Part shown: one piece after another, positions 25,398-55,157 of the stretch
Numbering within the stretch: position 1 is the first letter of the stretch
How the letters are laid out: the number at the start of each line of letters is the position of its first letter
Origin: a plasmid
Strand: one strand, 5' to 3'
Assembly (NCBI RefSeq): GCF_054482525.1
Contig: NZ_JBTHVG010000003.1
Length of the DNA stretch: 64,000 nucleotides
Made by a program: the position numbers and the translations under genes
The notes under the pieces: generated by a model
Databases searched by the model: none
What the model saw: only the letters and a program-made list of their open reading frames with translations
What the model was told of the DNA's origin: nothing

Positions 25398-25952
25398 ATG
25401 GCAACTTCAGACTTCTCTCTTAAAAACCATAATGTAAAAGCTTTTGGTCAGGATGCAGCACTTGTCATTGAGATGAACAATGAAGATGTTAGCTCATCAA
25501 AACCTTCACCTTTTTCAAATGAGATTGATAATTATTATCTTACATTGCACGTCGCTCCGAGGAACGCCAAAAAAGATTATGACTGGGGCTCAAACCGTTC
25601 TGTACTTCTAAAATTGTCGACGAATGAAGTTATGCAGATGGCATCTGTATTTCTTAGAATCATGCATACTTTAAAAATTGATAAGAGGAAAACCTCACAT
25701 CATGGCCACGTCGTATACAAAAATATAAGCGTTACCCCAAACGAGAGGGGCGGTTTGTTGTTATCAGCAGGGATAGTTCCAGTCGATAAAGACGGCTTAA
25801 AACCCTTCATGCACATGGTCCCCGTCTCACAAATGGACTGCGTTAAAATTGGCCTCTACATACTTGGATATCTTGCTCAAAAAACGCCTTGGGTAAGCTC
25901 CGAGTCTATAATTACCGCGCTTCGCTTATCTGAAGCCAAGAATTCAAAATAG
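25398..25952 (+). CDS. Hypothetical protein
   Basis: About 184-aa ORF. Confidence 0.3.
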   Translation: MATSDFSLKNHNVKAFGQDAALVIEMNNEDVSSSKPSPFSNEIDNYYLTLHVAPRNAKKDYDWGSNRSVLLKLSTNEVMQMASVFLRIMHTLKIDKRKTSHHGHVVYKNISVTPNERGGLLLSAGIVPVDKDGLKPFMHMVPVSQMDCVKIGLYILGYLAQKTPWVSSESIITALRLSEAKNSK

Positions 25953-26071
25953 CGTATTAACATACGGAATACATGGAAAAATACAGGTTTTTTTAAATAT
26001 TATACGAACGGATATTTCTGTTTTTCATCGTAAAGTGAGTTTAATTTTGCTCAGAAAAACAGGTATTCGTC

Positions 26072-40330: not shown

Positions 40331-41203
40331 ATGTCTAAAAATAAAGCTCGCAGTAAAGCCCTTCATCAAACCTTTAGTGAAATTATTCCAGAGATGGATA
40401 AGGCGCTAAACAAACAGCTCTTAGAAGTTCTGATGAAATATACAGAACGTGATAATGAACTGATTGTTATTTTGAATGAGGACGGCCCAAATATCATTGA
40501 ACTTAAGTCTCTTAAGCCTGTGTCGTTGTTGGCCGAAAAGCTTTCTGCTTATTCAAGCTATTATCATGTGGATGTTGTGGAGCTCGTGGTCAAGAAAATT
40601 GATTTCGAAGGAGCTTATAAGCTTCTTAAAGCTTCCCCAGATGTACCACTTTTTAAAAGCTTAACTGAACTGGATAAATATCTTGTTGAGGAGTTTGAAA
40701 AATACGGATTAAATTCATTTCTTGACGTGGATAATCTGGATTACTCACTTGAAAAAGCCAGTGAACTCAAAAATGAGCAGTTAATAAATTGGGTTTCGGA
40801 CATCATTTGCAAACGTGAAAAATTAACTTTACGTAAGCGTTTTGATGTCGCAGTAAAGGCCCACTACGAAAATGTAGAAAAAATGTATGATACCATTCGT
40901 CCGTTAATGAAAAAACTGGGTTTCCCAGAAGATCTCATGACGCACACCTTTAGTGAGTTAAGCGTTTTTGAAACTAAAGGATGGGACCATGCAATAAAAT
41001 CGAAAATTGAGACTCTCGCTAAGCGTGAAACTCAATATTTAGATGATGCGGCTAAAGCAGAGAATCGACGTCTTGTAACAGAGAAGTTGGAGAACTCTTT
41101 AGCGATTGCACCAACTAAACCAACAAGAAATTGGTTACATATTGCCGGAATTGCCTGTTTGGTAGTCTGCACGTTCATGTATGTAACTAATAAATTTATT
41201 TAA
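40331..41203 (+). CDS. Hypothetical protein with C-terminal transmembrane anchor
   Basis: 290 aa, hydrophobic tail (WLHIAGIACLVVCTFMYV). Confidence 0.35.
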   Translation: MSKNKARSKALHQTFSEIIPEMDKALNKQLLEVLMKYTERDNELIVILNEDGPNIIELKSLKPVSLLAEKLSAYSSYYHVDVVELVVKKIDFEGAYKLLKASPDVPLFKSLTELDKYLVEEFEKYGLNSFLDVDNLDYSLEKASELKNEQLINWVSDIICKREKLTLRKRFDVAVKAHYENVEKMYDTIRPLMKKLGFPEDLMTHTFSELSVFETKGWDHAIKSKIETLAKRETQYLDDAAKAENRRLVTEKLENSLAIAPTKPTRNWLHIAGIACLVVCTFMYVTNKFI

Positions 41204-41260
41204 TCCTGTTAAGGGGGAACCCTAACGGGGCTTCTCTTTGAACAAATCGAGGAGCGGAAA

Positions 41261-41638
41261 ATGTCATATCTTGAATATATCAATGAAGTAAAAGTGTCCG
41301 GGATAGTTATCAGTGCTGTGGAGAAAAAAATGACTGACCAGAGTATAGGTTTGTTAATAAAGCTCAAAAATAGGATGAAGACAGAAGTTGATGGTGAAAT
41401 CACTGAGAGAGAATTTTCAGTTCAAATCAAGGTGTCGCCTGAAATGTATTCAACCTGTTTCACTGGTATAAATCAGGGTGATGAGTTGATGGTCTCCGGT
41501 TATATTGTTGTCGATACTATTATGATTGAAGGGAGAGAACATCCTCTTGACTACATGAGAGTGGTAGCAACAAGTAAGTTGGCTCACATACCTAAACCTC
41601 TAAAAGGTTTTGGACAAAGTAGCTTTAATCAGATCTGA
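41261..41638 (+). CDS. Putative OB-fold ssDNA-binding protein (SSB/PriB-like)
   Basis: 125 aa. Beta-strand pattern (NEVKVSGIVISAV ... ELMVSGYIVVDT) resembles PriB/SSB OB-folds by eye. Weak call. Confidence 0.3.
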   Translation: MSYLEYINEVKVSGIVISAVEKKMTDQSIGLLIKLKNRMKTEVDGEITEREFSVQIKVSPEMYSTCFTGINQGDELMVSGYIVVDTIMIEGREHPLDYMRVVATSKLAHIPKPLKGFGQSSFNQI

Positions 41639-41644
41639 CATTAA

Positions 41645-41690
41645 ACCCACCCTAAAGGGGAGAAATCCCTTCATGGGATTTCTCCTTTTG
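41645..41690. repeat. Conserved palindromic intergenic element (GGGAGAAATCCC / GGGATTTCTCC arms)
   Basis: cccaccctaaaggggagaaatcccttcatgggatttctccttttgg. Same arms as the element at 51784-51823. Confidence 0.6.
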
Positions 41691-41698
41691 GAGTCCCC

Positions 41699-42676
41699 AT
41701 GAAACAAAAATTTAGGGCTACTGCAATAAGTAGTAATCAACTTAGTTTTTTTTCTATACTCGATATAGATGAAGATGAAATAACGCAAATAGTTGATTCA
41801 CCCAAAGAGCATTTAAATGATGCTTACACGTCCGGATTAAACTTTAAATCAGAAGAAAGTAACATTTCTGAGATAAATTATGATTCTGAAAGGCGTGAAA
41901 ATCACCTTTATGAAAAATCCAAATTACTTAAAAATCAGATTTTGCATACAATTAATTTTGCAGCAGAAACAGATTATCTATATACGGTTGAAGAATATAA
42001 CCCAGATTTGGGTGGTCTGGTAATAGAATGGACCCCTGAGGATGTGTATGTTGTTTTTCTATCCGCTATGGAAGAGTCTTTGGAAATCATTAAAGAACTA
42101 GTGTTGAGGAGAAAGTTATTCTTCAAAGATGACAATGGTAATATCACAGTGAATCCACTTTTAGAAGCTGAAACACGGTGGTATATGTCAAAATCATTTG
42201 AATACACTTGTTTATGTCATGGACTTGATGCATGTGAATTTAGAGCGGAATTAAAATCATGGCTCTATTATCATTCGCATCGTTCGATTAGTGAAAACAC
42301 GAAATTAGCTGAATGCAGGAATGATGATGAAATCATTTTGCATGATTGCAATGACGATATGGGCTGGGACATCTTCTTTGATCAGGATTATTTAATGTCA
42401 GAAAAAAAACTGGCTGTTAAATGGACTGACAGGGAAATTATGGATGTTTACATAAAAGCTTTTAAATCCACATTAGAGTTGTTTGACGAGCTTGTTTCAT
42501 GTGATCTGTTAACTAAACGAAACGCTTTTGGCAAGTTAGAAATCAATCCAATATTCGAAAATCATTTTGAATGGATCATGTCTGAAGCTTTTGAAATAGT
42601 GGGAAATCATCTTGGTTATAATGTGCCTCAAATCAGGAAACTGATGGCAACTATTTGCCAAATGAATCTCAAATAA
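41699..42676 (+). CDS. Hypothetical protein
   Basis: 325-aa ORF, acidic. Confidence 0.35.
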   Translation: MKQKFRATAISSNQLSFFSILDIDEDEITQIVDSPKEHLNDAYTSGLNFKSEESNISEINYDSERRENHLYEKSKLLKNQILHTINFAAETDYLYTVEEYNPDLGGLVIEWTPEDVYVVFLSAMEESLEIIKELVLRRKLFFKDDNGNITVNPLLEAETRWYMSKSFEYTCLCHGLDACEFRAELKSWLYYHSHRSISENTKLAECRNDDEIILHDCNDDMGWDIFFDQDYLMSEKKLAVKWTDREIMDVYIKAFKSTLELFDELVSCDLLTKRNAFGKLEINPIFENHFEWIMSEAFEIVGNHLGYNVPQIRKLMATICQMNLK

Positions 42677-42733
42677 AATGCCACTGGCAAACATCTGCCA
42701 GAGGGCGGTGTTTGCATTTTACCGGAGTTAAAA

Positions 42734-43792
42734 ATGTCTAATGCCGCTATGAAGTTAAATGAAACATCTTCTGATGCTTATGAAAAATTAGAAGCTCTTC
42801 TTTCCCCGGATGTTATAAAGTTAAAACATTATGTGGATAAAGGTGAGTATCTTTTAGTTCTAGCAAAGGACCTTTTTGGTATTCCAGAAATGGATCCAAA
42901 GATGGCTGTGCCTGTTTTCAAAACTAAAACCTCGTATCGAGCTCCGCTGAACAAAGACTACATACCAAATCCCCGAATACTTGAACAAGTGGTTAAACTG
43001 CTTATCAGTCCGGATATAGATTTAAGTGTGTGTCTTAAAGGTGAGTCCGGTTCTGGCAAGACTGAAATGGTAATGTACATTAGCCACATGATGAATTGGC
43101 CGCTGACAATTAAGCAGATCAACAGCAATATTCGAGTTGATGAGCTTGAAGGTGAGCGCAGTCTTAATGGTGGTAATACAGGTTTTGTACACAGCGATTT
43201 GGTAACGGGATTTCGTAATGGTCACCTCATTCTTCTGGATGAAGTGGACAAAATCGATCCTGATACGGCAGCAAAACTTCACATGCCCATTGAACGTAAG
43301 CCCTGGTCACTCAGTGCTAATGGTGGTGAGGTTATAACTGCTAATGGCTACACGCGATTTATTGGTACTGCAAACACAAACATGAGTGGAGGCGCTCGCC
43401 GGTTCGTTTCTTCTCAACGTCAAGATGCAGCTTTTATAAAGCGGTTCTTGATAGTTGAAATGGAGAAGCCCGACAAAGTTGCTTTAACCAATGTGCTTAC
43501 TAAACGATATAGCTCTTTGCCTTTTCAGGTCATTGAGAAGTTCGTAAGAGTAGCGATTGCAGTAAATGACTCTGGTACAGAAGACAGTGTGATGGATATT
43601 CGTCAATTAGTAGCTTGGGTTGGCACGTCGATGACGTTAAAAACCTTTAGTCTTCTTGACACTTTCAAAATAGCTTTTGCTTCTGCTTTACCTTTACATG
43701 TGGTCGATCTTGTTCTTCAAGCTATAGATCTTTCTCTTGGCGAAGACAAGGATAAATCGCTGGAGTATTTCACAGCAAAAAAGTCGAGTTAG
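42734..43792 (+). CDS. MoxR/CbbQ/CobS-like AAA+ ATPase
   Basis: 352 aa. Walker A GESGSGKT, Walker B LILLDEVDK. Partner vWA gene two genes downstream. Confidence 0.8.
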   Translation: MSNAAMKLNETSSDAYEKLEALLSPDVIKLKHYVDKGEYLLVLAKDLFGIPEMDPKMAVPVFKTKTSYRAPLNKDYIPNPRILEQVVKLLISPDIDLSVCLKGESGSGKTEMVMYISHMMNWPLTIKQINSNIRVDELEGERSLNGGNTGFVHSDLVTGFRNGHLILLDEVDKIDPDTAAKLHMPIERKPWSLSANGGEVITANGYTRFIGTANTNMSGGARRFVSSQRQDAAFIKRFLIVEMEKPDKVALTNVLTKRYSSLPFQVIEKFVRVAIAVNDSGTEDSVMDIRQLVAWVGTSMTLKTFSLLDTFKIAFASALPLHVVDLVLQAIDLSLGEDKDKSLEYFTAKKSS

Positions 43793-44101
43793 ATGGGATT
43801 TGTTATGAAACCTCTGATATTTGTATCTCAGAGTTATCCCATCTTGAATTTAGTGCGTTTTTAAGTACGGATGGTGCTGCTACCATTGCTATAGCAAAAA
43901 ACGGAACTAATTTTACTGGACTTATGCAACTGAATAACGACTATTCTTTATTGTTTTATCATGATGGTAAAATAAATATGGAAGGTCTGATTAAACAAAT
44001 GGAATTAAAAGGTTATATGTATCAGGGAGCAATGGGCAATGATGATGTTGTTGCTGAGTTTCCCGGTATTCTTTTAATTTCACCAGAGAAGCTTTAATAT
44101 C

Positions 44102-44150
44102 AACCCTATCGGGAAATCTTTCCCGTTGGGGAGGGTTTCCCCTTTTTTTT
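44102..44150. repeat. Conserved palindromic intergenic element / putative terminator
   Basis: aaccctatcgggaaatctttcccgttggggagggtttcccctttttttt. Confidence 0.5.
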
Positions 44151-44160
44151 GGAGAAACCC

Positions 44161-45288
44161 ATGACTTTAAATACTTCAATGCTTAACAAAGTATCTGCAA
44201 AACAAATCTCTGAGAATTTTGCAAAATCATATCCAGATTTACTGGAAGGTGCAGTTATAACAAAAATTGAAATAAGTGGCTGTCAAGGATCGCGTCGAAC
44301 CGATAAAATCGATTTGTCTTATGATGGAGATGATATTACGGATCAAAAAAGCGTATCTAAAAGCGAAGTACGCTGGATTGACATAAAAGCCCTTAGCTTC
44401 AAAAGTACGATTACCAGCAGAATATCAACTCTTTGCTCACGCTTGTGCATCCGCTATAGCAATATGTGGATTTTACCAGTATCCAGTATGGAAGAGTTTC
44501 TGGAAGGGGCCCAAGAGATTGAACGAGAGTTTCAGGCAGGTATTCAAAACGTTGTAGACAATTATGAGATGCATATTGAGGCTGAAAAAAATAGAAGCCC
44601 AAGAATGTCTTCTTTGATTGATCAGTTGAAATTAACTAAAGATGATTTCATAAAATCCTTTAGATTTAATATTGCTCACTTTATTCCTTTTACGCCTATT
44701 AGCGTTGAAGGTGATGAAACCCAGGACTACTATCAGGAACAATTGATAACAGATCTGGCAGAAGAAGCAATGAAGGTTTATGAAAAAATTAGCAAAAATA
44801 ACAATTTGCGCTCAAGTACTATTGACCGACTGAAGCAAATGCAAAATAAGATCATTAGCTTCATGTTTATACATAAAGAGGCGGCAGTACTTGCAGAAGC
44901 TATAAAACACATAATGAATAATTTACCTAAAGGTGCCATTTCTGAACCTCGCGACGTTGCGGTGTTACAGCAGTGGTTTTATTTCATGAGTGATGCTTCA
45001 ATGTTAAAGCGTATTATTTCAGGAGAGCAAAAGGTTACTGACTGGTTGGAATCTATTACCAGATCATTTAATCAAAGCTCACAAACAGAACCGAACGCGC
45101 TACAGAACACAGGTATTGAAGCTATTTTAGATTCAACAAATGTGTTCCAGGTTGAACCTGTCGTAGAGAACGATATAAATAACAGCACGTTTTCAAACAC
45201 TGATCCTGTAGCTGAACCTGAGAAATCAGTTTCGCAACAGGAAGACAATGTTGAAAATGGTTTTGATATCGAGCTCAAAGGCTGGTAA
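44161..45288 (+). CDS. Hypothetical protein
   Basis: About 375 aa; ATG at 44161 with a GGAG ribosome-binding site. Lies between the AAA+ and vWA genes. Confidence 0.35.
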   Translation: MTLNTSMLNKVSAKQISENFAKSYPDLLEGAVITKIEISGCQGSRRTDKIDLSYDGDDITDQKSVSKSEVRWIDIKALSFKSTITSRISTLCSRLCIRYSNMWILPVSSMEEFLEGAQEIEREFQAGIQNVVDNYEMHIEAEKNRSPRMSSLIDQLKLTKDDFIKSFRFNIAHFIPFTPISVEGDETQDYYQEQLITDLAEEAMKVYEKISKNNNLRSSTIDRLKQMQNKIISFMFIHKEAAVLAEAIKHIMNNLPKGAISEPRDVAVLQQWFYFMSDASMLKRIISGEQKVTDWLESITRSFNQSSQTEPNALQNTGIEAILDSTNVFQVEPVVENDINNSTFSNTDPVAEPEKSVSQQEDNVENGFDIELKGW

Positions 45289-45306
45289 CTGTTTGCTTTA
45301 TTAAAA

Positions 45307-45350
45307 ACCCCAGATGGGTACTTCACCATCTGGGTGAGTACCCCTTTTTT
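45307..45350. repeat. Conserved palindromic intergenic element / putative terminator
   Basis: cccagatgggtacttcaccatctgggtgagtacccctttttt. Confidence 0.5.
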
Positions 45351-45365
45351 ATAAAGAGGTATTCT

Positions 45366-47378
45366 ATGAAATTAGATCTTAAATCATCACCGCGCCATAT
45401 TAAGCGTTTACAGAATATAGCAAAAGTCATTAGCGGCTTAGGCGATGTAAGAGTTGTAATAGACGACAATACCAAAGGACCGTATTTTGATCCTGTAAAT
45501 AAAGTTTGTGTTTTACCAAACGGCGATTATAGCGATGATGACTTTGTCAGTCTGATTGAAGGTTTTACCTGTCATGAAGCTGGTCATGGTCGCTATACCG
45601 ACAGCGAGGTTTACAGTGACGCCTTTAATAGTGTTCTCAAGTCATCTGAAGGGTTTACACGCTTCGATGACGGAATGAATGCAGAGTTTGAGAGCCTCGC
45701 TGAGAAACGTAAAGCTTATAGCAGGGCAAAACGTCTTACCGGGCTTATAAATCTGTTCGATGATGTACAGATGGAAGAGAAGGTTGGTAACGATTATCCG
45801 GATGCAAAGCGGCGGCTTGCAGCCACTTACGCACTGATGGTTAAAGCCGGAAGGATGACTCCTGATATATCTTCTCGTCCGGAAAATCCTGTCCTATTTA
45901 TTGAGTGGTATCTGCTTAACTCATTGCGAGTAAAAGTCCTTCAGCAGGCAGGTCACAAAGAAACACTCGATCCGTTTTTTGACTATGCCCAAAAGATACT
46001 TTCTCCAGTAATTTCTGATGTTGAGGAAATTTTTCATGATGCTCTTGGTTGTGAAAATACTCAGGGCTGTGAATCCCTTGCTCGTAAGACCCTGGCTCTT
46101 TTAGAGAGACTGCGGGATGAGGCAAGGGAACAACAGCAGCAGACAGAGCAGGAGGAGCAGGAGGCATATGATGAATCCGAGACCGATACCGATACCGATA
46201 CCGAATCAGAAGATAAATCGCTTGAGTCGACTGATAGTCGTGAGGATGATTCTGAGGACGATAGTGAAGGTCAGGCAGATACTTCCGATAACTCTGATCT
46301 TGCTCAAGAGGGATGTTCTGAGCCTTCAGAACTTGCTGAAGATAACGAGGGAAATAATGAACCCACCGGTGGCAATCCCACAGGTGATAACATTATTGAA
46401 GACGATACTGATGCGATTAACCCTTCCGAGAGTGAATCAGATGAAGCCAGTTCGACTAACGTTGAAGATGAAAGTAACTTTTCATCGGCTCAATGGGAGA
46501 TACTGGCAGATTTGTTGGATGCCTTTCTTGGCAGTGATGAGGATAGCGAAGATTATCACGATGCTTTGGCTAAAGAGATTGAAGGTATTGCATCAAAAGT
46601 ATCCGATGACGTGAAAGCCGAATTCGGTGCTTCTGAATGGGATATCCCTGATCTCCTTATCGATTTGAATGTTTACAATGAGGCTTTGTCTCTGAGTCAT
46701 TCAATCGGTAGCGACTTGTCTGTTTTACAGCAGGTTAAAATGCGTGGCCGAAACAAAACTCATGAGCGTGGAATTACCTTCGATGGAAATCGATTAATTC
46801 TGTCACCAATGGGAGTTCGTGATGTCTTCAGAGCTCAAAGCGAATCTAAAAATAGAGGGCATGTTGGCCTCGTATTAGTTCGTGATATTTCAGCGTCAAT
46901 GGCTAATGATGAAAGATATATTCATGCCATTAAGTCAGATCTTGCTTTATCGATGGCCGCTGAAAGTTTGTCAAAAATGCATGTCTCCAATATAGTCTTT
47001 CCCTTCAAGGAAAGTGAATTTGAGATTATCAAAACGTTTGATCAAAGCGTTGAGGAATCTCTATCGAAATTCACTCTTGGATGTAAGGGTTATTATACCC
47101 CTACGGGATCGGCTTTAATGGCAGCTGTTGATCTGTTACTTGACAGCCAATTCGATAGGAAAATAATTTTTCTTATAACTGATGGTTATCCGAATAAATC
47201 GGAATTTACTATCGGCGAAGTTATGGAAAAGGCTAAGTGTAATGGAATAGAAATCGTTGGTGTTGGTATTAAGACTGATGAAATAATTGGTTTTGAAACG
47301 GACACTTTCGTAACAGTTGATGATACTTCTTTATTGTCTATTGAAGTCAGTAAGCTAGTTCATCAAATACTTTCTTAA
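45366..47378 (+). CDS. von Willebrand factor A (vWA/MIDAS) protein, CobT-like, with a highly acidic low-complexity linker
   Basis: 670 aa. MIDAS DxSxS (VRDISASM). Central acidic tract (EQEEQEAYDESETDTDTDTESEDKSLESTDSREDDSEDDSE). Paired with an upstream MoxR-type ATPase. Confidence 0.7.
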   Translation: MKLDLKSSPRHIKRLQNIAKVISGLGDVRVVIDDNTKGPYFDPVNKVCVLPNGDYSDDDFVSLIEGFTCHEAGHGRYTDSEVYSDAFNSVLKSSEGFTRFDDGMNAEFESLAEKRKAYSRAKRLTGLINLFDDVQMEEKVGNDYPDAKRRLAATYALMVKAGRMTPDISSRPENPVLFIEWYLLNSLRVKVLQQAGHKETLDPFFDYAQKILSPVISDVEEIFHDALGCENTQGCESLARKTLALLERLRDEAREQQQQTEQEEQEAYDESETDTDTDTESEDKSLESTDSREDDSEDDSEGQADTSDNSDLAQEGCSEPSELAEDNEGNNEPTGGNPTGDNIIEDDTDAINPSESESDEASSTNVEDESNFSSAQWEILADLLDAFLGSDEDSEDYHDALAKEIEGIASKVSDDVKAEFGASEWDIPDLLIDLNVYNEALSLSHSIGSDLSVLQQVKMRGRNKTHERGITFDGNRLILSPMGVRDVFRAQSESKNRGHVGLVLVRDISASMANDERYIHAIKSDLALSMAAESLSKMHVSNIVFPFKESEFEIIKTFDQSVEESLSKFTLGCKGYYTPTGSALMAAVDLLLDSQFDRKIIFLITDGYPNKSEFTIGEVMEKAKCNGIEIVGVGIKTDEIIGFETDTFVTVDDTSLLSIEVSKLVHQILS

Positions 47379-47386
47379 TAAACTCT

Positions 47387-47423
47387 ACCCAATCGGGGCA
47401 AAAGGCCCCGGTGGGTCTTTTTG
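47387..47423. repeat. Palindromic intergenic element / putative terminator
   Basis: cccaatcggggcaaaaggccccggtgggtctttttgc. Confidence 0.5.
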
Positions 47424-47449
47424 CTCCATGAAGGAATAAGGAGCAAAAT

Positions 47450-47671
47450 ATGACTCAGATAAAAACTTACCGTGTAGAACATGAAAAAGTCGGTGCGATG
47501 CATAAAGTCCGTATTTTCGGACGTGTTGGTGAAGTTATAAGCAATGATAGCCCTCAGGAAAGAATCTTCCGCGAAGTCACTATAGCGGAGGGTAATAGCC
47601 AGCAGGCTGCGTTACTTGTAGATAACTACATACAGTGTCTTGAGAATAATGGCTTCACGACTGAAGCATAA
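47450..47671 (+). CDS. Hypothetical small protein
   Basis: 73-aa ORF flanked by two palindromic elements. AGGAG-like ribosome-binding site (aaggagcaaaatatg). Confidence 0.35.
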   Translation: MTQIKTYRVEHEKVGAMHKVRIFGRVGEVISNDSPQERIFREVTIAEGNSQQAALLVDNYIQCLENNGFTTEA

Positions 47672-47676
47672 ATGTT

Positions 47677-47700
47677 GAGGGCCCCCGGGCCCTCTTTCTT
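47677..47700. terminator. Putative intrinsic terminator (GAGGGCCCCCGGGCCCTC palindrome)
   Basis: Perfect GC palindrome followed by a T-rich run. Confidence 0.55.
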
Positions 47701-47784
47701 AAATTCTGCGTTGTGGGTTTCTCCCTGTCTTCTGCACCGCAGAAGGCATTGAGAAACTCACAATGCCAGATAAGAGAGATCATC

Positions 47785-49017
47785 ATGACTTATGCATCCC
47801 CGGCTCTTCGTCGTAATCCACAGGAAGTATCTGAACACTTTATTAAACTCGTTCATGCTCGAATTGCTGAAGTGTCTGGCTGGAAGTATATATTCGAAAG
47901 AATACCTGCTTTCAAAGACGCTTGTGCAAAAGCCCCGAGCCAGGTTCCTTGCCCGTTTACTGGCGCAGGGAAATCGAAGTTTCGTTTCCGACAAAAAGAC
48001 CTTTATACCGGATGTGCGATCCATAATGACTTTCCGGTAAATGAGTTTTGCGACGGAATTGATGTTCTGGCGAAATATTATGAATTAAGTAAAACGCAGA
48101 CTTGCAAAAAGATTCTCTCAGATTTTTTCGGGATGGATCTGCATGCTCCGTTAACTGACGCCGACATTGAAAATGAACGACGCTATAAATCAGCAGTTCG
48201 TGCCACAGAAACTCTTGACCGAGAGGAAGTGGCAAAGCGAATGCGAAAACTTGATGTGATGTATCACTATACCGGTGAAATCAAGCCTAATACTCCTGTT
48301 GCTTTGTACCTCCGTAATCGTGGGATCTCCCGCTTACTGAGTCACTTACCAAAGGATTTAGGCTTTAATAACCGGATCTACTATTGGGATAAAGATAAGC
48401 AGAAATCGATTATCTATCCGGGAATGATTGCGATCTATCGTGACACCCGAGGTCGGCCTCTGACTATTCATAGAACATACGTAGACAAAAATGGTGATAA
48501 GGCACCTGTAGAAAATCCAAAGCTGATGATGAAGCCTCCTGCCGATATGACAGGTGGCTCAATTCAGTTGTTTGACCCTCACTATGATTCAGGTAGTTCG
48601 ACCTGGACACTGGGAGTGGCTGAAGGGATCGAGAACGCGCTTTCTGTTGTAGAAGCGACTTCAACACCATGCTGGGCAGCCAGCTCCGCATGGTGCCTTG
48701 AAAACGTTACTGTTCCTGATTTTTTACTGCCTCCGCCGGATGTAAAATCTATAAACTTTTATATCTGGGCGGATAAGGATATTGCTAACTCACAAGGCAC
48801 TCGTGCCGGTATTGAAGCTGCTCAGCGACTTCAAAGCCGCATGGTTGAGTTTTTGGCTAAACGATATCCCGCATCAAAGCTGACAATTGAAGTCTTCGAA
48901 CCAGCACAAGATATTCCTGATGGGAAAAAGGGTATCGACTGGAACGATGTTCTCCAGTTAACAGGGCAGGATGGATTCCCGATTCACTGGGCTCCTGAAT
49001 GTCTTAATCAGCTGTAA
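47785..49017 (+). CDS. Primase-like protein (degenerate primase zinc-ribbon-like segment plus Toprim-like domain)
   Basis: PCPFTGAGKSKFRF resembles the CPxCGGxDRF primase zinc-ribbon motif. Toprim-like acidic motifs (LGVAEGIENA; IWADKDIANSQG). ATG at 47785 with an AGAGAG ribosome-binding site. Confidence 0.55.
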   Translation: MTYASPALRRNPQEVSEHFIKLVHARIAEVSGWKYIFERIPAFKDACAKAPSQVPCPFTGAGKSKFRFRQKDLYTGCAIHNDFPVNEFCDGIDVLAKYYELSKTQTCKKILSDFFGMDLHAPLTDADIENERRYKSAVRATETLDREEVAKRMRKLDVMYHYTGEIKPNTPVALYLRNRGISRLLSHLPKDLGFNNRIYYWDKDKQKSIIYPGMIAIYRDTRGRPLTIHRTYVDKNGDKAPVENPKLMMKPPADMTGGSIQLFDPHYDSGSSTWTLGVAEGIENALSVVEATSTPCWAASSAWCLENVTVPDFLLPPPDVKSINFYIWADKDIANSQGTRAGIEAAQRLQSRMVEFLAKRYPASKLTIEVFEPAQDIPDGKKGIDWNDVLQLTGQDGFPIHWAPECLNQL

Positions 49018-49028
49018 CAACGATAACT

Positions 49029-49052
49029 CCCCCGCTTTTTGCGGGGGGGGTT
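49029..49052. terminator. Putative intrinsic terminator after the primase-like gene
   Basis: cccccgctttttgcggggggg hairpin. Confidence 0.55.
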
Positions 49053-49287
49053 ATCTTATCAATATTATATTTTAAAATTGTATTGATAAGATAACCGCTT
49101 TCCTTCGTGATAATTACCTGCCTTTAAGGTCTTTTCACGGCTGAGATGCTTGCTCAGTTAAATAAATGTGCGGTACTACTGGCTATGGTCGGTTGTATGA
49201 CATGGTTATTCCATAAACTATTAAAACCCATAACGGGAGTATTACCGTTATGGTGATGCTCGTCGTTTTACATCGGAGAGCATTTTA

Positions 49288-49809
49288 ATGAATTTTCAAA
49301 TTAACGAAGTTTTTAATAAATTTGCTGCTGTTATAAAATCGCGCATCGTCAATGAACCATCGTCATGCTATTTGCTGCATGATAATGAGATAGATATAAC
49401 GATTTTGAAACATAGCATATTAGAAAATGACAGAAACCTGTTGTACGTAGTTCGTCCTTCAGGAACGTGTTTGTTGCGTTGTGACAAATATTTCTATCCG
49501 AAATATTATCTTCGTTGCCGTGGAGATTATAAGTCATTCATATATGTCCATCTTGATCTACATAGTGGTGAAGCTAAAGAAATCACATGGGAGCAAGCAG
49601 ACGATATGCTGTCTAGTCCAGGAAAACCCCCATTAAAAGGGAATCTTGGACGATTTGAGTATATAAAAGTTGTGGTTGAGGACCTTCGTATTCGAGGTTA
49701 CGCTGATTATCTTCCTGCGTATAATCTTGATGACCTTCGCCGTTTTGCCTTACAGGACGACCGCCCATCCCTTGTCAGATACATTGACAATGTCATGGCA
49801 ACGGTCTGA
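49288..49809 (+). CDS. Hypothetical protein
   Basis: 173-aa ORF. Confidence 0.3.
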   Translation: MNFQINEVFNKFAAVIKSRIVNEPSSCYLLHDNEIDITILKHSILENDRNLLYVVRPSGTCLLRCDKYFYPKYYLRCRGDYKSFIYVHLDLHSGEAKEITWEQADDMLSSPGKPPLKGNLGRFEYIKVVVEDLRIRGYADYLPAYNLDDLRRFALQDDRPSLVRYIDNVMATV

Positions 49810-49887
49810 TTGATTGCTAATTGATTTACATATTTTCCCTGATGGCCAACCTGCATCAGGGAGGCCTCAATAACGAATGGAGGCTGT

Positions 49888-50766
49888 ATGAAGTTAGCTA
49901 CGGACCTGGTAAAAGCTATTTTGATTAGAAATGGCGTTGAACCAGTAAATATAAGCGAATCATCTAAGTTATCTTTGAAACAACCACTGACAGAACTTAA
50001 ATTCAGTTTATATTTGCGAACTGAGCATTTATCTCACTTCCTACCCGGTTATGTTTATTCTATAAAAGAATGTCCACTGTCATATGACATCGGGATCGAA
50101 ATTCAGAAAATCTTCGAAAGTTTACATTTGTTAAACGAAGAATTTGAATCCCTCGGTTTTGTTTCTGTATGGATAGAAATGCATCAAAGCATTTTTGAAC
50201 AAAGTCGGTTTAAGAAAAGTAACTTTACTTTTCGGGAGGAAGAGGTCGAGCTTGCTAAAGGGCTTGTTTGTTCTCACAATTCACAAATAAGTAATGCGGC
50301 TTATTTCTGGCTTCAGCACTTTGAGGAGTTTATGATTTATGTTCGTAATAAGCTTATCGACCTCTTTCGAGAGGCCTATGACCTGATCCTTGGAATGCAG
50401 CAAGTATTTTTCATTCGGGAAAAGGAAGAGCTGTTGAAAACTATAAGTTATGGCGATGAGCTGTATGAGGTGAAATTCATGGCGGCTGAGCTTTACTCTA
50501 TCGAACAGAACTTAAAGTGTTCTGAATCGATAAGTACAAAATCTCAAGCTTCGGCATATATTAACCGCATCCGTGAGTTTGTGCGTTCGGGGTGGAGGCA
50601 GGGCTATATAGTCTGCCATCATAAGCGAAGTAATCAAATTTCATCATTGTCATTACCGATGTACTTGAAAGATACGTCAGGCCGAAGTGCTCGAAAGCGA
50701 GTAAAACGTCTTATATCTTCTACAGTTTGTGGTAGAAATAAAGATTTAGGTCTTACAGATTTTTAA
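49888..50766 (+). CDS. Hypothetical protein, paralogue 1 of a five-gene tandem family
   Basis: 292 aa. N-terminal pattern (MKLATDLVKAILIRNGVEP...) shared with the next four ORFs. Confidence 0.4.
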   Translation: MKLATDLVKAILIRNGVEPVNISESSKLSLKQPLTELKFSLYLRTEHLSHFLPGYVYSIKECPLSYDIGIEIQKIFESLHLLNEEFESLGFVSVWIEMHQSIFEQSRFKKSNFTFREEEVELAKGLVCSHNSQISNAAYFWLQHFEEFMIYVRNKLIDLFREAYDLILGMQQVFFIREKEELLKTISYGDELYEVKFMAAELYSIEQNLKCSESISTKSQASAYINRIREFVRSGWRQGYIVCHHKRSNQISSLSLPMYLKDTSGRSARKRVKRLISSTVCGRNKDLGLTDF

Positions 50767-50776
50767 TTAAATTATA

Positions 50777-50820
50777 CCCATGTGGGGATCACACCCCATA
50801 TGGGAGTGATCCCTTTTTTT
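50777..50820. repeat. Conserved palindromic intergenic element / putative terminator
   Basis: cccatgtggggatcacaccccatatgggagtgatcccttttttt. Confidence 0.6.
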
Positions 50821-50836
50821 ATTGAGAGAGGATCAC

Positions 50837-51772
50837 ATGAAAATTATCGAAAAAATCATTAATGCCTTTTTGGTTGTTCAACATAAAAAAATACAGGTTA
50901 AAAACATTACATTTTTAGACAATGGGCAGGGCATGTTCTCTGGTATGTCTTTTGATGCTGATGTTTCACTGGAGTTTATGTATGAATCAGCAAAAGCATA
51001 TAGTTCTTGTTTCTGTGATATTCCCTTTCCAGGTTTTGAAGATGCAAATCTGGAGGAAATTACGAAATTTCAATTAGATGCTTTGAAGCAAAGAAAGAAT
51101 CATTCTTTCTTTGTTAACCATTTGAGGTTTCCTATAGTTTTAAGGGAAGGGTGCAAAATCGAAAGAGGAGAAGTCTATTCAATTTCGAATTGCACTTATA
51201 ATAAAGAAAGATTGCAGTATCTTTTTTCTCAGGATATTTACGGTAAGTTGTATAATTCCTTAGAGAAAGAATTAAGCTCGTTTTTCTCATTTATCAATGT
51301 TGAGGTGCACGAGTTGTTAAAAGATGCTGTATGCTTTGCATTAAAAATCCTGAATAAGATATCTTTGGATACACCTGAAAGACTTATTAAAGCTTTTAAT
51401 TATCGTGACTGGTATTGTAGTTACGATGTTGAGCTTTTTAGGAAAGGCTTACCTGGTCATATTCTGGAAGAGCTCATTGCTCCAGATATCTTACTTTCAG
51501 ACCTTAACGGTTGTAGAAAAATACTTAGAAATGCAAAACGATTTCTAAATGGACATACACAAACCAATTGTGTTTATATTAAATATGAATGGTGGTTGGG
51601 GCCTGTTGATACCTCACACTCAGCTAAGTTGATGTCTGACAAAGAAATTAATAACCGAAGTGACTTGAAGAATTTTTCAAAGGTCTTTTTCAAAGAGTGT
51701 TTAAGTTCTGGTAAGTCGGAATATGAAAACCATCTTAGTGAAAAAGAACATGCGCTTCGCTATAATTATTAA
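50837..51772 (+). CDS. Hypothetical protein, paralogue 2 of the tandem family
   Basis: 311 aa; ATG at 50837 after GAGAGAGGA; N-terminus MKIIEKIINAFLVVQ... Confidence 0.4.
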   Translation: MKIIEKIINAFLVVQHKKIQVKNITFLDNGQGMFSGMSFDADVSLEFMYESAKAYSSCFCDIPFPGFEDANLEEITKFQLDALKQRKNHSFFVNHLRFPIVLREGCKIERGEVYSISNCTYNKERLQYLFSQDIYGKLYNSLEKELSSFFSFINVEVHELLKDAVCFALKILNKISLDTPERLIKAFNYRDWYCSYDVELFRKGLPGHILEELIAPDILLSDLNGCRKILRNAKRFLNGHTQTNCVYIKYEWWLGPVDTSHSAKLMSDKEINNRSDLKNFSKVFFKECLSSGKSEYENHLSEKEHALRYNY

Positions 51773-51783
51773 TTAAAATTATT

Positions 51784-51823
51784 TTCTCCCATAGGGATTT
51801 CTCCCTATGGGAGAAATCCCTCT
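51784..51823. repeat. Conserved palindromic intergenic element (GGGATTTCTCCC / GGGAGAAATCCC arms)
   Basis: ttctcccatagggatttctccctatgggagaaatccctc. Perfect 12-bp arms with a 3-nt loop; same arms as the element at 41645-41690. Confidence 0.65.
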
Positions 51824-51840
51824 ATTAAGAGGGTATTGAA

Positions 51841-52761
51841 ATGAATGCTATACAAAAGTTAGTTGAATCTATTCTTGTTAAAATGGGTTTTGTTGGCGCT
51901 GTAGTGGAAAATATATATTTGGATTCAAAACCATTTCGGCATATTCGATTTGTGGCTGATATTCCAGTAATATCTTTTCTACCTCATTTGGTGAAATATC
52001 TTAAGGGTGCAGACCATCTTTACAGTGGTAACGATGATTTGCATCCTCTTTTCATTTATTTTTCCGAAGCGGCTACATTAAAAGCAGGTCCTGTAAATCT
52101 CGCGAACTTTCGTTTTGAAGTTTCTATAGCTTCAACTCATTTACGACTGGTCTCAGAGCAGCCTGATTTGCTTTTCAAAGGATTTAACCGGGATAATCTA
52201 GAATACGTTTATTACCGCTCAGATTTGGCCTCTAAGGATCTTATACTAGGCCTTGTTGAACACGGTTCTCCTTTCATAAAACATCTACATGGACTTATAC
52301 AAAAGCGAATTTTAAACGAGTTCTCTCTGATTTTTTCTGTTCTTGAAAAGATTTTAGAAAGCGCGAAGCCACAAATTCTTGCTTGCTTCCATAGTGTTGA
52401 TTATGAAATGAACGTAAAAATAATAGCCGAAGCTATACCTGAAACTGTATCTAATCAGATAGTCACATCTGATTATATAGTTAATTCTATATCAGATGCG
52501 GACAAGTTTATAAATCATGTTCGTCGCTATTTAGCAGGCAGGGTAATGAAGAGGCGGATATACGCTGAATTAGATGTTTGTGAAGAAACATCAAGTATTT
52601 CACTAGTGAACTTAGGATGCTTTACGTCTCCTCTGCTCGTTACGGAATATCAAATGTTTAAGCCACACTCTTCAGGGTTATATCGAAAAGCTATAAACAA
52701 CTCCTTAAAACAGTTCAAACCAGAAATGCATGTACCTTCTGAAGAACTCTTTTATAATTAA
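51841..52761 (+). CDS. Hypothetical protein, paralogue 3 of the tandem family
   Basis: 306 aa; N-terminus MNAIQKLVESILVKMGF... Confidence 0.4.
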   Translation: MNAIQKLVESILVKMGFVGAVVENIYLDSKPFRHIRFVADIPVISFLPHLVKYLKGADHLYSGNDDLHPLFIYFSEAATLKAGPVNLANFRFEVSIASTHLRLVSEQPDLLFKGFNRDNLEYVYYRSDLASKDLILGLVEHGSPFIKHLHGLIQKRILNEFSLIFSVLEKILESAKPQILACFHSVDYEMNVKIIAEAIPETVSNQIVTSDYIVNSISDADKFINHVRRYLAGRVMKRRIYAELDVCEETSSISLVNLGCFTSPLLVTEYQMFKPHSSGLYRKAINNSLKQFKPEMHVPSEELFYN

Positions 52762-52766
52762 TCTAA

Positions 52767-52810
52767 CCCATCCGGGAACCTGCTTCCCGGTGGGAAGCAC
52801 TTCCTTTTTA
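52767..52810. repeat. Conserved palindromic intergenic element
   Basis: cccatccgggaacctgcttcccggtgggaagcacttccttttta. Preceded by ATCTAACCCA, as is the element at 53879. Confidence 0.55.
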
Positions 52811-52827
52811 GTCATGAGGTAGTGTAA

Positions 52828-53766
52828 ATGTTTAAAGAATCTGACCACGTGGAATTTGTTAGTGCCTTTCTTTATCAAAATTTAGGCCTTAATGTTTCCG
52901 CTGACGATATAACCGTTCAATTATCTGATACTTCGTTCGACAAAGTAACCTTTGATTACGATGTAGATATCGATAATTTAAATTGTATGTTGGATCTCTA
53001 CATATCTGAGCTAATAAAGCACAACGCATCTTACTCCGATTCTATTCTTTTGAAACAAAAAATAATTTATTTTCTTGGAGTATTTAAGAATTTCGGATTT
53101 TTTACGTTTGATATTCGCGGATATAGTAATACTTTAAGCCCAGTTAAAGTTATTGATATTGTTTCAATGATTATTAATGACTGTGAAGAGTTATCTAAAG
53201 CTAATTCTTCTACTGATGCTATAAGAAATCTTTATCTCGATAAAATGAAGGTGGATGGGAAAGTGTTAGTTGCGAAATTTGCACTTAAACAGTTTTTTCA
53301 TTCCGACTTTGGTGACTTTATCTCATTTGTCGAGAAAAGAATTACAGATTGTCTTAATGAAACTTTAAGGATTATCAAAGCTGTTGAACATGGCTTTGTA
53401 CGTGTAGGGCAGCATAAGATTAATCGCCGTATTAATGATGACTTAAAGTTATGCATTGATTTCAATACTGATGATTATCCGGCAAATATGCCAGATATAT
53501 ATATTAAGTTTAACGATACATTTGATGGGAACGGGGCGTTATATTGTGACAATGATGCCCTCATATCCCTCTATACCGATGTTGCTTCAATTATCAATGT
53601 GCCGGTGATGATGGAAGTAAGATTGATCAATAAAAGAGGGCGTGTTGTCTGTGATTCTTCGCATTCAACTTACGTATCTCTCGAAAGTAATGACCGATAC
53701 AGAGTAACTGATCGCACATTACTAATAACTGAAGCTTTTGACGATTTTCGTAACGCGTCTCAATGA
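52828..53766 (+). CDS. Hypothetical protein, paralogue 4 of the tandem family
   Basis: 312 aa. Clearly paralogous to the next ORF (VDGKVLVAKFALKQFFHSDF versus VDGQVMIARFALQQFWDTHF; C-terminal DRTLLITEAFDDFRN versus DRNDLVSEVFDNLRN). Confidence 0.45.
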   Translation: MFKESDHVEFVSAFLYQNLGLNVSADDITVQLSDTSFDKVTFDYDVDIDNLNCMLDLYISELIKHNASYSDSILLKQKIIYFLGVFKNFGFFTFDIRGYSNTLSPVKVIDIVSMIINDCEELSKANSSTDAIRNLYLDKMKVDGKVLVAKFALKQFFHSDFGDFISFVEKRITDCLNETLRIIKAVEHGFVRVGQHKINRRINDDLKLCIDFNTDDYPANMPDIYIKFNDTFDGNGALYCDNDALISLYTDVASIINVPVMMEVRLINKRGRVVCDSSHSTYVSLESNDRYRVTDRTLLITEAFDDFRNASQ

Positions 53767-53878
53767 TCCTTTTGCTTCAGTCCAAAAAAGTAACTTTGGT
53801 TGGCTGAAGACACTTGTCTATGACAATGTAAAATCTGTCGCTGGCATCTTCTTTTAGCTTAACCAAATTTTTATCTAA

Positions 53879-53919
53879 CCCAGTGGGGAAGTCGCTTCCC
53901 TTCTGGGGCACTTCCTCTC
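53879..53919. repeat. Conserved palindromic intergenic element
   Basis: cccagtggggaagtcgcttcccttctggggcacttcctctc. Downstream ribosome-binding context GAGGTAGTGTA is shared with the 52828 gene. Confidence 0.55.
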
Positions 53920-53931
53920 AAATTCGAGGTA

Positions 53932-54894
53932 GTGTATATGACACATTCATCTGATGATAAAAACTATGTCCGAGCAGTTCTGAGTTATCTTGGCATAGAT
54001 TTTGATGAGGCGGATATAGTATTAAGTGTTTGCCATTGTCAAAGTGACGAGCTTTCTTTTACCTGTAATATCAAAGCTATTGAACTCAAGAATGTTGTTG
54101 ATTTATATGTCGATAGTATCTCTGAGAATGAAATAGAAGCTTTAAACAGAGAATCTTTAAAATCGCGACTCTGTTACTTTCTTGAGGTGTTTGACGCAGT
54201 CTCTGGTCAGTACCTTGAAATTTCAGGAAAACACTTTGCAACTAGTCGTTTTGAATATGATGATGTTTGTAGTGAAGTTCTTAGCATGTCTAATGATGTT
54301 TCTCAGTCGAAAGGTTATGACCGGGATGAATATAACAGACTGATGCAGGTTGATGGTCAGGTTATGATTGCCCGTTTTGCTTTGCAACAGTTCTGGGATA
54401 CTCATTTTATTGGACTAATAACATTTGTATCTGAGTCTATAACATCGAGCCTCTATAAAGCTTATGAAACTTTTAGTGATATTAGTTTGGCTTGCTATAA
54501 ACTGAGTGAATATTCTTATTCACGCTCTATCAACAGTGAATTGACCCTTAATATTTCACTTAAAGAAAATGACTTCTGTGAGGACCTATCTGATTGCTAT
54601 ATGGAAGATGAGGCTTTACCTTCTGGTAGGGTAATTTCTCGACGCAACAATGACTCCATAATAAGTATTTATGAGAGCTATGCTGCGGCTTCTTATATTC
54701 CGATGATTGCATCTTTGGAAGTCGTTGATGAATACGGCGAAGTGGTTACTGACCTCTGCCATACCGTTTATGTTTCAGAGTTAACCGGTGGGCGGATTAA
54801 AATCCACGACCGTAATGACTTAGTATCTGAAGTTTTCGATAACCTAAGAAATTTAAATCTTGCAGTTGGAGATTCAGTTTCACAAGCTGCTTGA
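53932..54894 (+). CDS. Hypothetical protein, paralogue 5 of the tandem family
   Basis: 320 aa; paralogous to the 52828 ORF. Confidence 0.45.
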   Translation: MYMTHSSDDKNYVRAVLSYLGIDFDEADIVLSVCHCQSDELSFTCNIKAIELKNVVDLYVDSISENEIEALNRESLKSRLCYFLEVFDAVSGQYLEISGKHFATSRFEYDDVCSEVLSMSNDVSQSKGYDRDEYNRLMQVDGQVMIARFALQQFWDTHFIGLITFVSESITSSLYKAYETFSDISLACYKLSEYSYSRSINSELTLNISLKENDFCEDLSDCYMEDEALPSGRVISRRNNDSIISIYESYAAASYIPMIASLEVVDEYGEVVTDLCHTVYVSELTGGRIKIHDRNDLVSEVFDNLRNLNLAVGDSVSQAA

Positions 54895-55157
54895 TTCTTT
54901 CCCTGATTTTGATTTTTTCTCACATACTCTTATGGCACGGTTTCCGTGCCTTTTTTTTGCCTCGCTTACAAGCGTCTACTCCTCTTCTACCTATCCCACC
55001 TTACATCACCACTTAAAATCTATCTTTCTAATTCCATTATCCTTTTCGTAGCCTCTAATGCTCTGGTATGAACATACTCTTTAAACTCAAAAAAGTGCTA
55101 TTAACGAAAAAAAATCCCTAAAGAGATTTGTATACTGTTCTCAACCAAGGAGAGCTC

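Follow-up and report, generated by a model that had tools for sequence, protein, structure and literature searches.

Serial intercistronic RNA elements in an IncHI2 plasmid locus as candidate switches of translation initiation

In leader-peptide attenuation, as in ermC, cat and tetQ of CTnDOT, a ribosome on the 5'-most segment of the leader selects the open fold of the RNA. Leader-peptide attenuation of tetQ has been described (PMC5812530). Closer to the subject of this work, SXT has a "strong translational attenuator" before bet, which hinders expression of bet and exo and is said to be present in IncA/C plasmids as well; removal of the structure is reported to raise translation of bet (PMC4542580, citing Garriss et al. 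2013). At vcrx089 of IncC, Roy et al. predicted that the ribosome-binding site is sequestered in a structure, and they showed that this locus helps IncC plasmids to escape restriction and CRISPR while they conjugate (PMC7498323). For rpmI-rplT, coupling of translation through RNA unfolding is known at a distance of +52 nt (PMC12548453), and ribosome termination structures are centered ~9 nt past stop codons in gaps of at least 25 nt (bioRxiv 10.1101/2020.02.10.941153). Here, we analyze a stretch of 64,000 nt of plasmid DNA (contig NZ_JBTHVG010000003.1 of assembly GCF_054482525.1; hereafter, the window), in which ten GC-rich elements lie in series between the genes of two operons of an IncHI2 plasmid. 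We suggest that these elements may govern translation initiation of the gene that follows each of them.

An original prediction, made from the letters of the sequence, had proposed a similar module at ten or more intergenic sites, and this count stands with eight five-block copies and two simpler variants. A strict pattern, CCC-N2-6-GGG-N4-11-CCC-N2-6-GGG-N4-11-CC, has seven matches in the whole 64 kb, every one of them on the + strand, with 0.05 expected from shuffled sequences; all seven are intergenic and lie between 41650 and 53915. A relaxed pattern adds 45308, giving eight matches on the + strand and one on the - strand versus 0.84 expected. The eight copies start at 41650, 44104, 45308, 47388, 50777, 51788, 52767 and 53879, each between a stop codon and the next start codon, and the gaps 41204-41260 and 49810-49887 carry a simpler two-hairpin form, bringing the total to ten. 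All copies are on one strand and within two operons, in intercistronic gaps of 57-78 nt, with the spacing from block 5 to the start codon kept at 12-28 nt. The block pattern was found neither in the other ~50 kb of the window nor in another 50 kb of IncHI2 backbone. The module does not occupy nearly every gap, as had been proposed; those at 42677, 43793, 47672, 49018 and 54895 differ. Between copies, only the C3/G3 blocks are shared and the inner arms are different at every junction. The arms described as identical at 41645 and 51784 do contain the same 12-mers (GGGAGAAATCCC at 41658 and 51809; GGGATTTCTCC(C) at 41675 and 51794), but with swapped 5'/3' order, and the arms that are identical at 41658/51794 in IncHI2 differ in IncHI1. 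Against Rfam 15, the segment 39.5-57.5 kb gave chance-level hits only at E-values up to 1, none of them at gathering score.

In the RNA of the gene strand, each gap has six alternating blocks: C1, G2+X, C3, G4, X'+C5 and X'', which is the Shine-Dalgarno/start region of the next gene. Hairpin A consists of C1:G4 around a G2:C3 pairing and starts, in the median, 10 nt past the upstream stop codon. In hairpin S, found at all ten sites, X'+C5 pairs with the Shine-Dalgarno sequence of the next gene and often with its start codon too. Hairpin T is formed by G2+X and X'+C5 around a small C3:G4 hairpin, with the ribosome-binding site and C1 left free. T excludes both A and S. The ten elements, labeled by junction (J), are the following.

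41205..41263, + strand: J2, simpler two-hairpin variant (RNAfold), conserved in all lineages; A 41205-41229, 1 nt past the stop codon TAA at 41201-41203; S 41230-41255, covering the Shine-Dalgarno GAGGAG; start codon 41261.
41646..41701, + strand: J3 element, CCC-TAAA-GGGG-AGAAAT-CCC-TTCAT-GGG-ATTTCT-CC; Shine-Dalgarno GGAG 41690-41693, ~4 nt from X'; start codon 41699; a T-type fold has the minimum energy.
44104..44163, + strand: J6 element; A 44104-44131; S 44133-44160, GGGTTTCCCC:GGAGAAACCC; start codon 44161; alternative hairpin T 44111-44141, then T8; X' and X'' covary between lineages.
45308..45368, + strand: J7 element; A 45309-45334; S 45336-45364, GAGTACC:GGTATTC plus Shine-Dalgarno; start codon 45366; hairpin T GGGTACTTCACC:GGTGAGTACCC, then T6.
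47387..47452, + strand: J8 element; A 47387-47416; S 47419-47448, TTTTTGCTCC:GGAGCAAAA; no U-tail; start codon 47450.
49836..49890, + strand: J11, simpler variant; A 49836-49862, CCCTGATG:CATCAGGG; S 49863-49885, GGCCTC:GAGGCT, over the Shine-Dalgarno; start codon 49888.
50777..50839, + strand: J12 element; A 50777-50804; S 50806-50836, GTGATCC:GGATCAC, extending to the start codon 50837; hairpin T GGGATCAC:GTGATCCC, then T7.
51783..51843, + strand: J13 element; A 51783-51816 (15 bp); S 51818-51833, CCCTCT:AGAGGG (Shine-Dalgarno); start codon 51841; hairpin T GGGATTTCTCCC:GGGAGAAATCCC, no U-tail.
52767..52830, + strand: J14 element; A 52767-52794; S 52797-52825; start codon 52828; hairpin T TGCTTCCC:GGGAAGCA, with a T5 run 5 nt further on.
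53879..53940, + strand: J15 element; A 53879-53907; S 53908-53935; annotated start codon 53938; block 1 at 112 nt past the upstream stop codon.

The extra upstream half-site of the original prediction is real and corresponds to the 5' arm of hairpin A, and the alternative pairings suggested there exist as the mutually exclusive A, S and T folds, of which a switch is the best reading. Folding of the intergenic regions also recovers the proposed palindrome as hairpin T, but this is not usually the preferred structure: across eight plasmids, RNAfold gave A+S as the minimum-energy fold at ~60 of 67 junctions and the T stem at only ~6, mainly J3. In the IncHI2 elements, opening the ribosome-binding site costs 5-13 kcal/mol (median 9.3), compared with a median of 4.8 at 16 other junctions of the same plasmid. 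The gene strand folds with a minimum free energy of -28.1 kcal/mol versus -26.5 for the reverse complement (p = 0.007), and the helices hold 112 G-U pairs. We strongly infer that hairpin S occludes the ribosome-binding site, and our confidence in this occlusion is much higher than in the coupling mechanism set out below. Because the arm that follows block 4 pairs with the next Shine-Dalgarno sequence and start region, a pairing that the original prediction had missed, the predicted output of the elements is translation initiation and not transcription termination.

In six diverged lineages of the IncHI type, the elements occupy orthologous junctions, and their inner sequences vary from one lineage to the next with complementarity kept. 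Gene order is common to IncHI1 pHCM1, an IncHI1B-type plasmid, the pNDM-MAR/pKOX_R1 group and three further lineages, which were recovered from public assemblies via DUF3150 homologues of 68%, 55% and 45% identity; species-representative genomes scanned with a DUF3150 protein alignment yielded only two loci, both from lineages already sampled. At J12, all three partners change together from IncHI2 to IncHI1, i.e. X from GGGGATCAC to GGGGATTAC, X' from GTGATCCC to GTAATCCC and X'' from GAGGATCAC to GAGGATTAC. Similarly, at J6 the change of X' from GGGTTTC to GGTTTTC is matched in X'' by GAAACCC to GAAAACC. In pKOX_R1, with proteins only ~35% identical, the X sequences at the junctions are wholly different and the triple complementarity is the same.

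Alignments of orthologous junctions with MAFFT misregister the variable loops, which makes column-wise covariation counts weak; for this reason, we used duplex energies for partners from the same junction versus other junctions and for partners swapped between lineages. The S duplex reaches -12 to -16 kcal/mol with the partner from its own junction versus ~-8 with those of other junctions (permutation p <=0.0013 in all eight sets), and the X:X' duplex of T reaches -10.6 to -14.2 versus -7.4 to -9.9 kcal/mol (p 0.0003-0.03). Moreover, X is more similar to the X'' of its own junction than to those of others (p from <0.0001 to 0.05). When the partners at a given junction are taken from different lineages, S is weaker by 2.2 and T by 1.45 kcal/mol, a direction that holds at nine of ten junctions, with p-values that are inflated because the pairs are non-independent. 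These tests replaced an initial specificity test on the whole 60-nt upstream region, which was confounded by shared blocks and paralogous junctions. For nine J8 orthologues, RNAalifold predicts A+S, with changes on both sides and the pair kept at three of 16 predicted pairs, all in S; for eight J6 orthologues, the consensus is T. Overall, the computations show that three mutually exclusive, co-evolving pairings exist at the elements, and selection appears to maintain the pairing of X' with the ribosome-binding site.

To follow how the folds would respond to a ribosome, a growing stretch from the stop codon onward was forced to be unpaired, and the cost of opening the next gene from -13 to +3 was computed. 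With the 5' arm of A masked, this cost falls by a median of 5.4 kcal/mol (by at least 3 in 48 of 59 elements). When the mask is extended into X, the cost climbs again in most profiles, as predicted for a three-way switch. The ten IncHI2 elements start at 9.3 and drop by 7.0 kcal/mol; by contrast, the 16 controls, i.e. the other co-directional IncHI2 junctions with gaps of 41-144 nt, start at 4.8 and drop by 1.4 kcal/mol (Mann-Whitney p ~5e-4). One of these control gaps, 25950-26080 (119 nt, upstream of the large rsp gene), has a site sequestered at 10.5 kcal/mol, and masking its 5' part lowers this by 9.7; the gap may hold a further start site that is gated by structure, with another design.

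The same arrangement is present outside the IncHI plasmids. In a Vibrio MOBH plasmid and in IncC pUMNK88, the A+S module, again with T as the alternative, recurs at most junctions of a homologous operon (AAA ATPase, bet, exo, DUF3150 and VWA genes, with ssb also annotated in IncC), and in both plasmids the gap before bet is among them. In these plasmids, the stop codon directly abuts block 1 (UAACCC...), whereas a stop triplet abuts block 1 in just 11 of 54 IncHI elements. At six of ten short Vibrio junctions and at three IncC junctions, the site opens with masks of ~4-13 nt and shuts again beyond ~15. A terminating ribosome covers ~12 nt from the first base of the stop codon, as seen in toeprint data, and the opening window in IncC and Vibrio thus matches the reach of a ribosome on the stop codon. 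A+S modules also end several long gaps that hold a GCGATAGCTGGTCGCCAAAAA-like word, which we take to be an AcaCD-type activator box (1947-2165 and 6802-7000 in one of the two sequences; 4384-4829, 8567-8846 and 12485-12784 in the other). These modules probably lie in 5' untranslated regions (5' UTRs), and the start of transcription may coincide with block 1 or lie close to it. In Aeromonas pK520-KPC, a more distant relative of the operon is without the five-block design and has small CCC-YYYG-GGG hairpins (GCCCTTTGGGC, CCCTCGGG) right before the Shine-Dalgarno sequence (gaps 10833-11086, 12140-12252, 12739-12815, 14211-14307 and 14803-14909). In the limited literature searched, we found nothing relevant on coupling, hairpins or RNA-seq in IncHI plasmids and no description of the elements in IncHI, of serial use at every junction or of a decoy/register-shift design.

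Based on these data, we suggest a model in which the elements are translational attenuators or coupling switches that govern translation initiation of the next gene; we regard this model as about equally likely to be right or wrong. In the default state, C1:G4 and G2:C3 would form hairpin A, and X'+C5 would hold the Shine-Dalgarno/start region in hairpin S, closing the ribosome-binding site. The presumed trigger is a ribosome at the end of the upstream gene, on or just past the stop codon, which would occupy or unzip C1. G4 would then pair with C3, and the freed G2+X would capture X'+C5, releasing the Shine-Dalgarno sequence by a register shift of one block. In other words, X would be a decoy copy of the ribosome-binding site, and the outcome would be translational coupling across a gap of 55-80 nt. 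At four IncHI2 sites, T together with its U-run may cause some termination as a side effect.

Several observations weigh against this model. The strand difference in folding energy is modest. The equilibrium favors the closed state over the open one by 8-14 kcal/mol, and the switch would need an active push; T falls far short of S in strength at some junctions (e.g. J5 of pKOX_R1). The distance from the stop codon to block 1 in IncHI has a median of 10 nt (range 1-28), and half of the masking effect requires a median of 16 nt, counted from the first base of that codon; because only ~12 nt are covered by a terminating ribosome, about one third of the IncHI junctions are within its direct reach. 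At J15, block 1 is too far from the upstream stop codon to be reached by a terminating ribosome, and no conserved small open reading frame (ORF) ending near this block was found. In IncC and Vibrio, modules also occur in long promoter-bearing gaps without a convincing upstream ORF, and a search of these gaps for small ORFs ending at block 1 gave nothing conserved. Consequently, coupling cannot be the sole trigger: either a second trigger exists, or the modules without an upstream ORF are plain dampers. Two aspects of the methods count in the same direction, i.e. the non-independent pairs on which the swap p-values rest and the automatic delimitation of X, X' and X'', which is imperfect and lets A pairs contaminate T at a few junctions.

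The alternative that best survives is that the elements are constitutive translational dampers, in which S keeps translation low, A is an ordinary ribosome termination structure insulating the cistrons, and no switching takes place. S is universal and stable, the closed state is favored over the open one by the margin given above, and modules occur in 5' UTR-like gaps without an upstream ribosome, all as expected of a damper. The element in SXT is described solely as hindering expression (PMC4542580), and A is positioned like ribosome termination structures, ~9 nt past stop codons (bioRxiv 10.1101/2020.02.10.941153). However, a damper leaves unexplained the complementarity between X and X' within a junction and the resemblance of X to the ribosome-binding site there, in eight sets and between lineages, as well as the triple covariation at J12 and the tight fit between masking window and stop codon in IncC and Vibrio. 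Also, with 9-13 kcal/mol needed for opening, ten conserved backbone genes would be almost silent. We consider pure damping rather unlikely.

It is also conceivable that the elements are switches that respond to another signal, in which an RNA-binding protein of plasmid or host, a small RNA or a transcription start in or after block 1 frees all sites together, e.g. on entry into a new host. The invariant C3/G3 blocks, the nucleotide A that precedes block 1 in 39 of 54 elements and the G-free spacer upstream of it could form a common recognition site, but the needs of the register shift fully explain the conserved blocks. Modules without an upstream ORF, at J15 and in the IncC and Vibrio gaps with what we take to be an AcaCD-like box, fit such a signal; by contrast, no candidate factor was identified, and the position of the stop codon directly next to block 1 in IncC and Vibrio argues for ribosomes. 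The role of the homologous IncC locus in evasion of host defenses during conjugation (PMC7498323) would suit a signal on entry, and we consider this explanation improbable overall.

Termination of transcription was a further possibility, as the sites have a GC-rich stem and had been described as carrying a T-run after it. In this scenario, T with its U-run would stop RNA polymerase, A would be the antiterminator, and expression would step down along the operon. The T-run is indeed present at four of the eight copies (44143, 45345, 50814 and 52805) and missing from the other four; T followed by 5-8 U is found at 44111-44150, 45316-45350, 50784-50820 and 52781-52809, a consensus scan lists the T stems 44111-44141 and 52781-52799, and A and T are mutually exclusive. 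However, among the five-block elements a U-tail is present in only 17 of 54; IncHI1 has lost it from J6 and J7, it is missing from J8, J13 and J15, and none is visible by eye in the IncC and Vibrio junction sequences. T is seldom the minimum-energy fold, and A, being transcribed first, would pre-empt it. The true operon ends at 49027 and 54934 have plain terminators of a different shape, and pairing of X' with the Shine-Dalgarno sequence is left unexplained. We therefore find it very unlikely that the elements are primarily terminators or transcription attenuators. T with its U-run could cause termination at 44150, 45351, 50821 and 52810, and termination is at most a lineage-specific side effect.

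The last reading, that of dispersed, mobile palindromes like the REP (repetitive extragenic palindromic) family or of sites acting as DNA (protein-binding, cruciform or single-strand initiation), draws on the intergenic GC-rich palindromes and the 12-mer arms common to two copies, but it is largely refuted already and keeps next to no probability, as the copies are on one strand and in two operons only, share nothing beyond the C3/G3 blocks, are conserved in place with compensating changes over deep divergence, run with their pairing into the Shine-Dalgarno sequence and start codon, contain many G-U pairs, fold better as the gene strand than as its complement and have no match in Rfam. Three other kinds of RNA structure were considered and judged unlikely: a G-quadruplex, because the G-runs are too few; an RNA thermometer, because the closed state has more pairs, so that cold would favor it, which is the wrong direction for IncHI; and ANTAR-type dual hexaloops, because the loops are unsuitable.

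Thus, the feature is real, functional and strongly conserved, and it is neither a mobile repeat nor primarily a terminator. Returning to the coupling switch as our preferred reading, we tentatively put forward a broader version of it, which we see as possible and somewhat short of probable. In this version, a six-block register-shift relay would be conserved across the MOBH superfamily (IncHI1, IncHI2, pNDM-MAR-type, IncC and Vibrio plasmids and, by implication, SXT/R391) at nearly all junctions of their operons for establishment or host-defense evasion. A ribosome at the stop codon would flip C1:G4/G2:C3 plus C5:Shine-Dalgarno into G2:C5/C3:G4, such that the genes of the operon would be translated as a strict domino chain, and promoter-proximal copies would be opened by another cue.

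The original prediction had placed the elements in an accessory region. Instead, the region is conserved IncHI backbone: 41000-54900 is 100% identical to more than 1000 IncHI2 plasmids from Salmonella, E. coli and Enterobacter, the closest matches including many from clinical and livestock isolates, and it is syntenic in IncHI1 and remoter lineages. The Tra2 transfer genes trhF-trhN-trhI are directly upstream of the element region. All genes from 40331 to 54894 are on the + strand, and the majority are hypothetical, the others encoding a CobS-like AAA ATPase, a DUF3150 protein, a CobT-like VWA protein and a toprim/primase-like protein. Part of this operon is homologous to the "hde" locus of IncC, which aids escape from restriction and CRISPR in conjugation (PMC7498323). 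Three features in the same region stand outside the element family.

42677..42733, + strand: J4, with two hairpins in competition, CTGGCA/TGCCAG and GCAAACA.../...TGTTTGC; the Shine-Dalgarno sequence is paired in neither.
49027..49049, + strand: ordinary intrinsic terminator at the end of the first operon, followed by a 270-nt gap.
54934..54950, + strand: ordinary intrinsic terminator at the end of the second operon, GGCACGG-TTT-CCGTGCC then T8.

The J4 gap, 42677-42733, lies upstream of the AAA ATPase gene and is near-invariant across IncHI2, IncHI1 and the IncHI1B type, with flanking genes ~65% identical. The gap 47669-47790 before the toprim/primase-like gene forms an extended hairpin of -62.7 kcal/mol over 122 nt (GTTGTGGGTTTCTC:GAGAAACTCACAATG) that encloses an alternative ATG; its sequence is kept in all lineages, and the annotated starts vary among records. 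Between 49888 and 54894, five genes in a row encode proteins of 292-320 aa with alike N-termini and sizes and no PHROG match; judged by eye, they are an apparent tandem paralogous family, with one element upstream of each. Finally, the 11-bp palindrome AAAGTWACTTT has 16 copies in the window versus 0.09 expected, both genic and intergenic, at 987, 6174, 8483, 20149, 22223, 25189, 29276, 30459, 32823, 39346, 40025, 46471, 50216, 53787, 57980 and 61425. An inverted pair, 40011/40025, is upstream of the first gene of the operon, and another copy is in the long J15 gap. The palindrome recurs in every IncHI-type lineage examined, often at orthologous positions, and in other IncHI2 backbone as well; it looks like a plasmid-wide operator or protein-binding word.

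IncHI2, IncHI1 and IncC plasmids are major carriers of multidrug resistance. If every gene of the operon were translation-gated, the gate would be a control point for plasmid establishment, and it would explain high transcription without high protein levels, as for bet and exo. Moreover, with ~10 natural variants per plasmid of one design of ~60 nt in many lineages, the elements are a comparative series on how ribosomes remodel downstream RNA, and the design is a template for the tuning of synthetic operons.

Among known systems, REP, BIME and REPIN sequences are likewise short GC-rich palindromes past stop codons; however, the elements described here share triplet blocks only, in one orientation and at one locus, and they are inherited vertically with covariation. 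Similarly, the GC-rich stem with U-run of intrinsic terminators is also seen at four IncHI2 sites, but the U-run of the elements is not conserved, their stem is rarely preferred, and they lie inside operons. Ribosome termination structures, like hairpin A, are stable, are found at the edge of the terminating ribosome and occur in gaps of >25 nt. They are generic insulators without a specified partner, whereas the inner strand of A is shared with the fold that would free the site.

In coupling by RNA unfolding (rpmI-rplT at +52 nt, MS2 coat-lysis and f1 gene VII-IX; PMC12548453), a structure silences the downstream site and upstream translation relieves it, as we propose for the elements, and, as in those cases, the gaps of the elements are large enough for a second ribosome to load. 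In the known cases, however, the inhibitory partner is within the upstream ORF and is unwound directly, while in the elements the anti-Shine-Dalgarno sequence is intergenic and its release would proceed via a decoy relay. As in the attenuation of ermC, cat and tetQ, a fold that sequesters the Shine-Dalgarno sequence competes with one that frees it, and in our model, too, the open fold would be selected by a ribosome on the 5'-most segment. By contrast, the elements are without drug-dependent stalling and without a leader peptide; the "leader" would be the full upstream gene with its ribosome at the stop codon. Also, the segments of the elements are nested (C1:G4 around G2:C3), and not linear (1:2 and 3:4) as in the ermC type.

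The closest relatives are the bet attenuator of SXT/R391 and the vcrx089 structure, which likewise lie in a homologous MOBH operon on a polycistronic mRNA and are described or predicted to hinder translation of the next gene. The six-block register shift, the decoy X and the proposed link to upstream termination are features of the IncHI elements that do not appear in the texts on SXT and IncC consulted. The bet attenuator of SXT was described as single and as serving one gene, whereas IncHI has ten elements in series, and neither bet nor exo. Judged by sequence and predicted pairing, the elements thus appear to extend the single case of SXT bet to a serial, modular architecture in another plasmid group.

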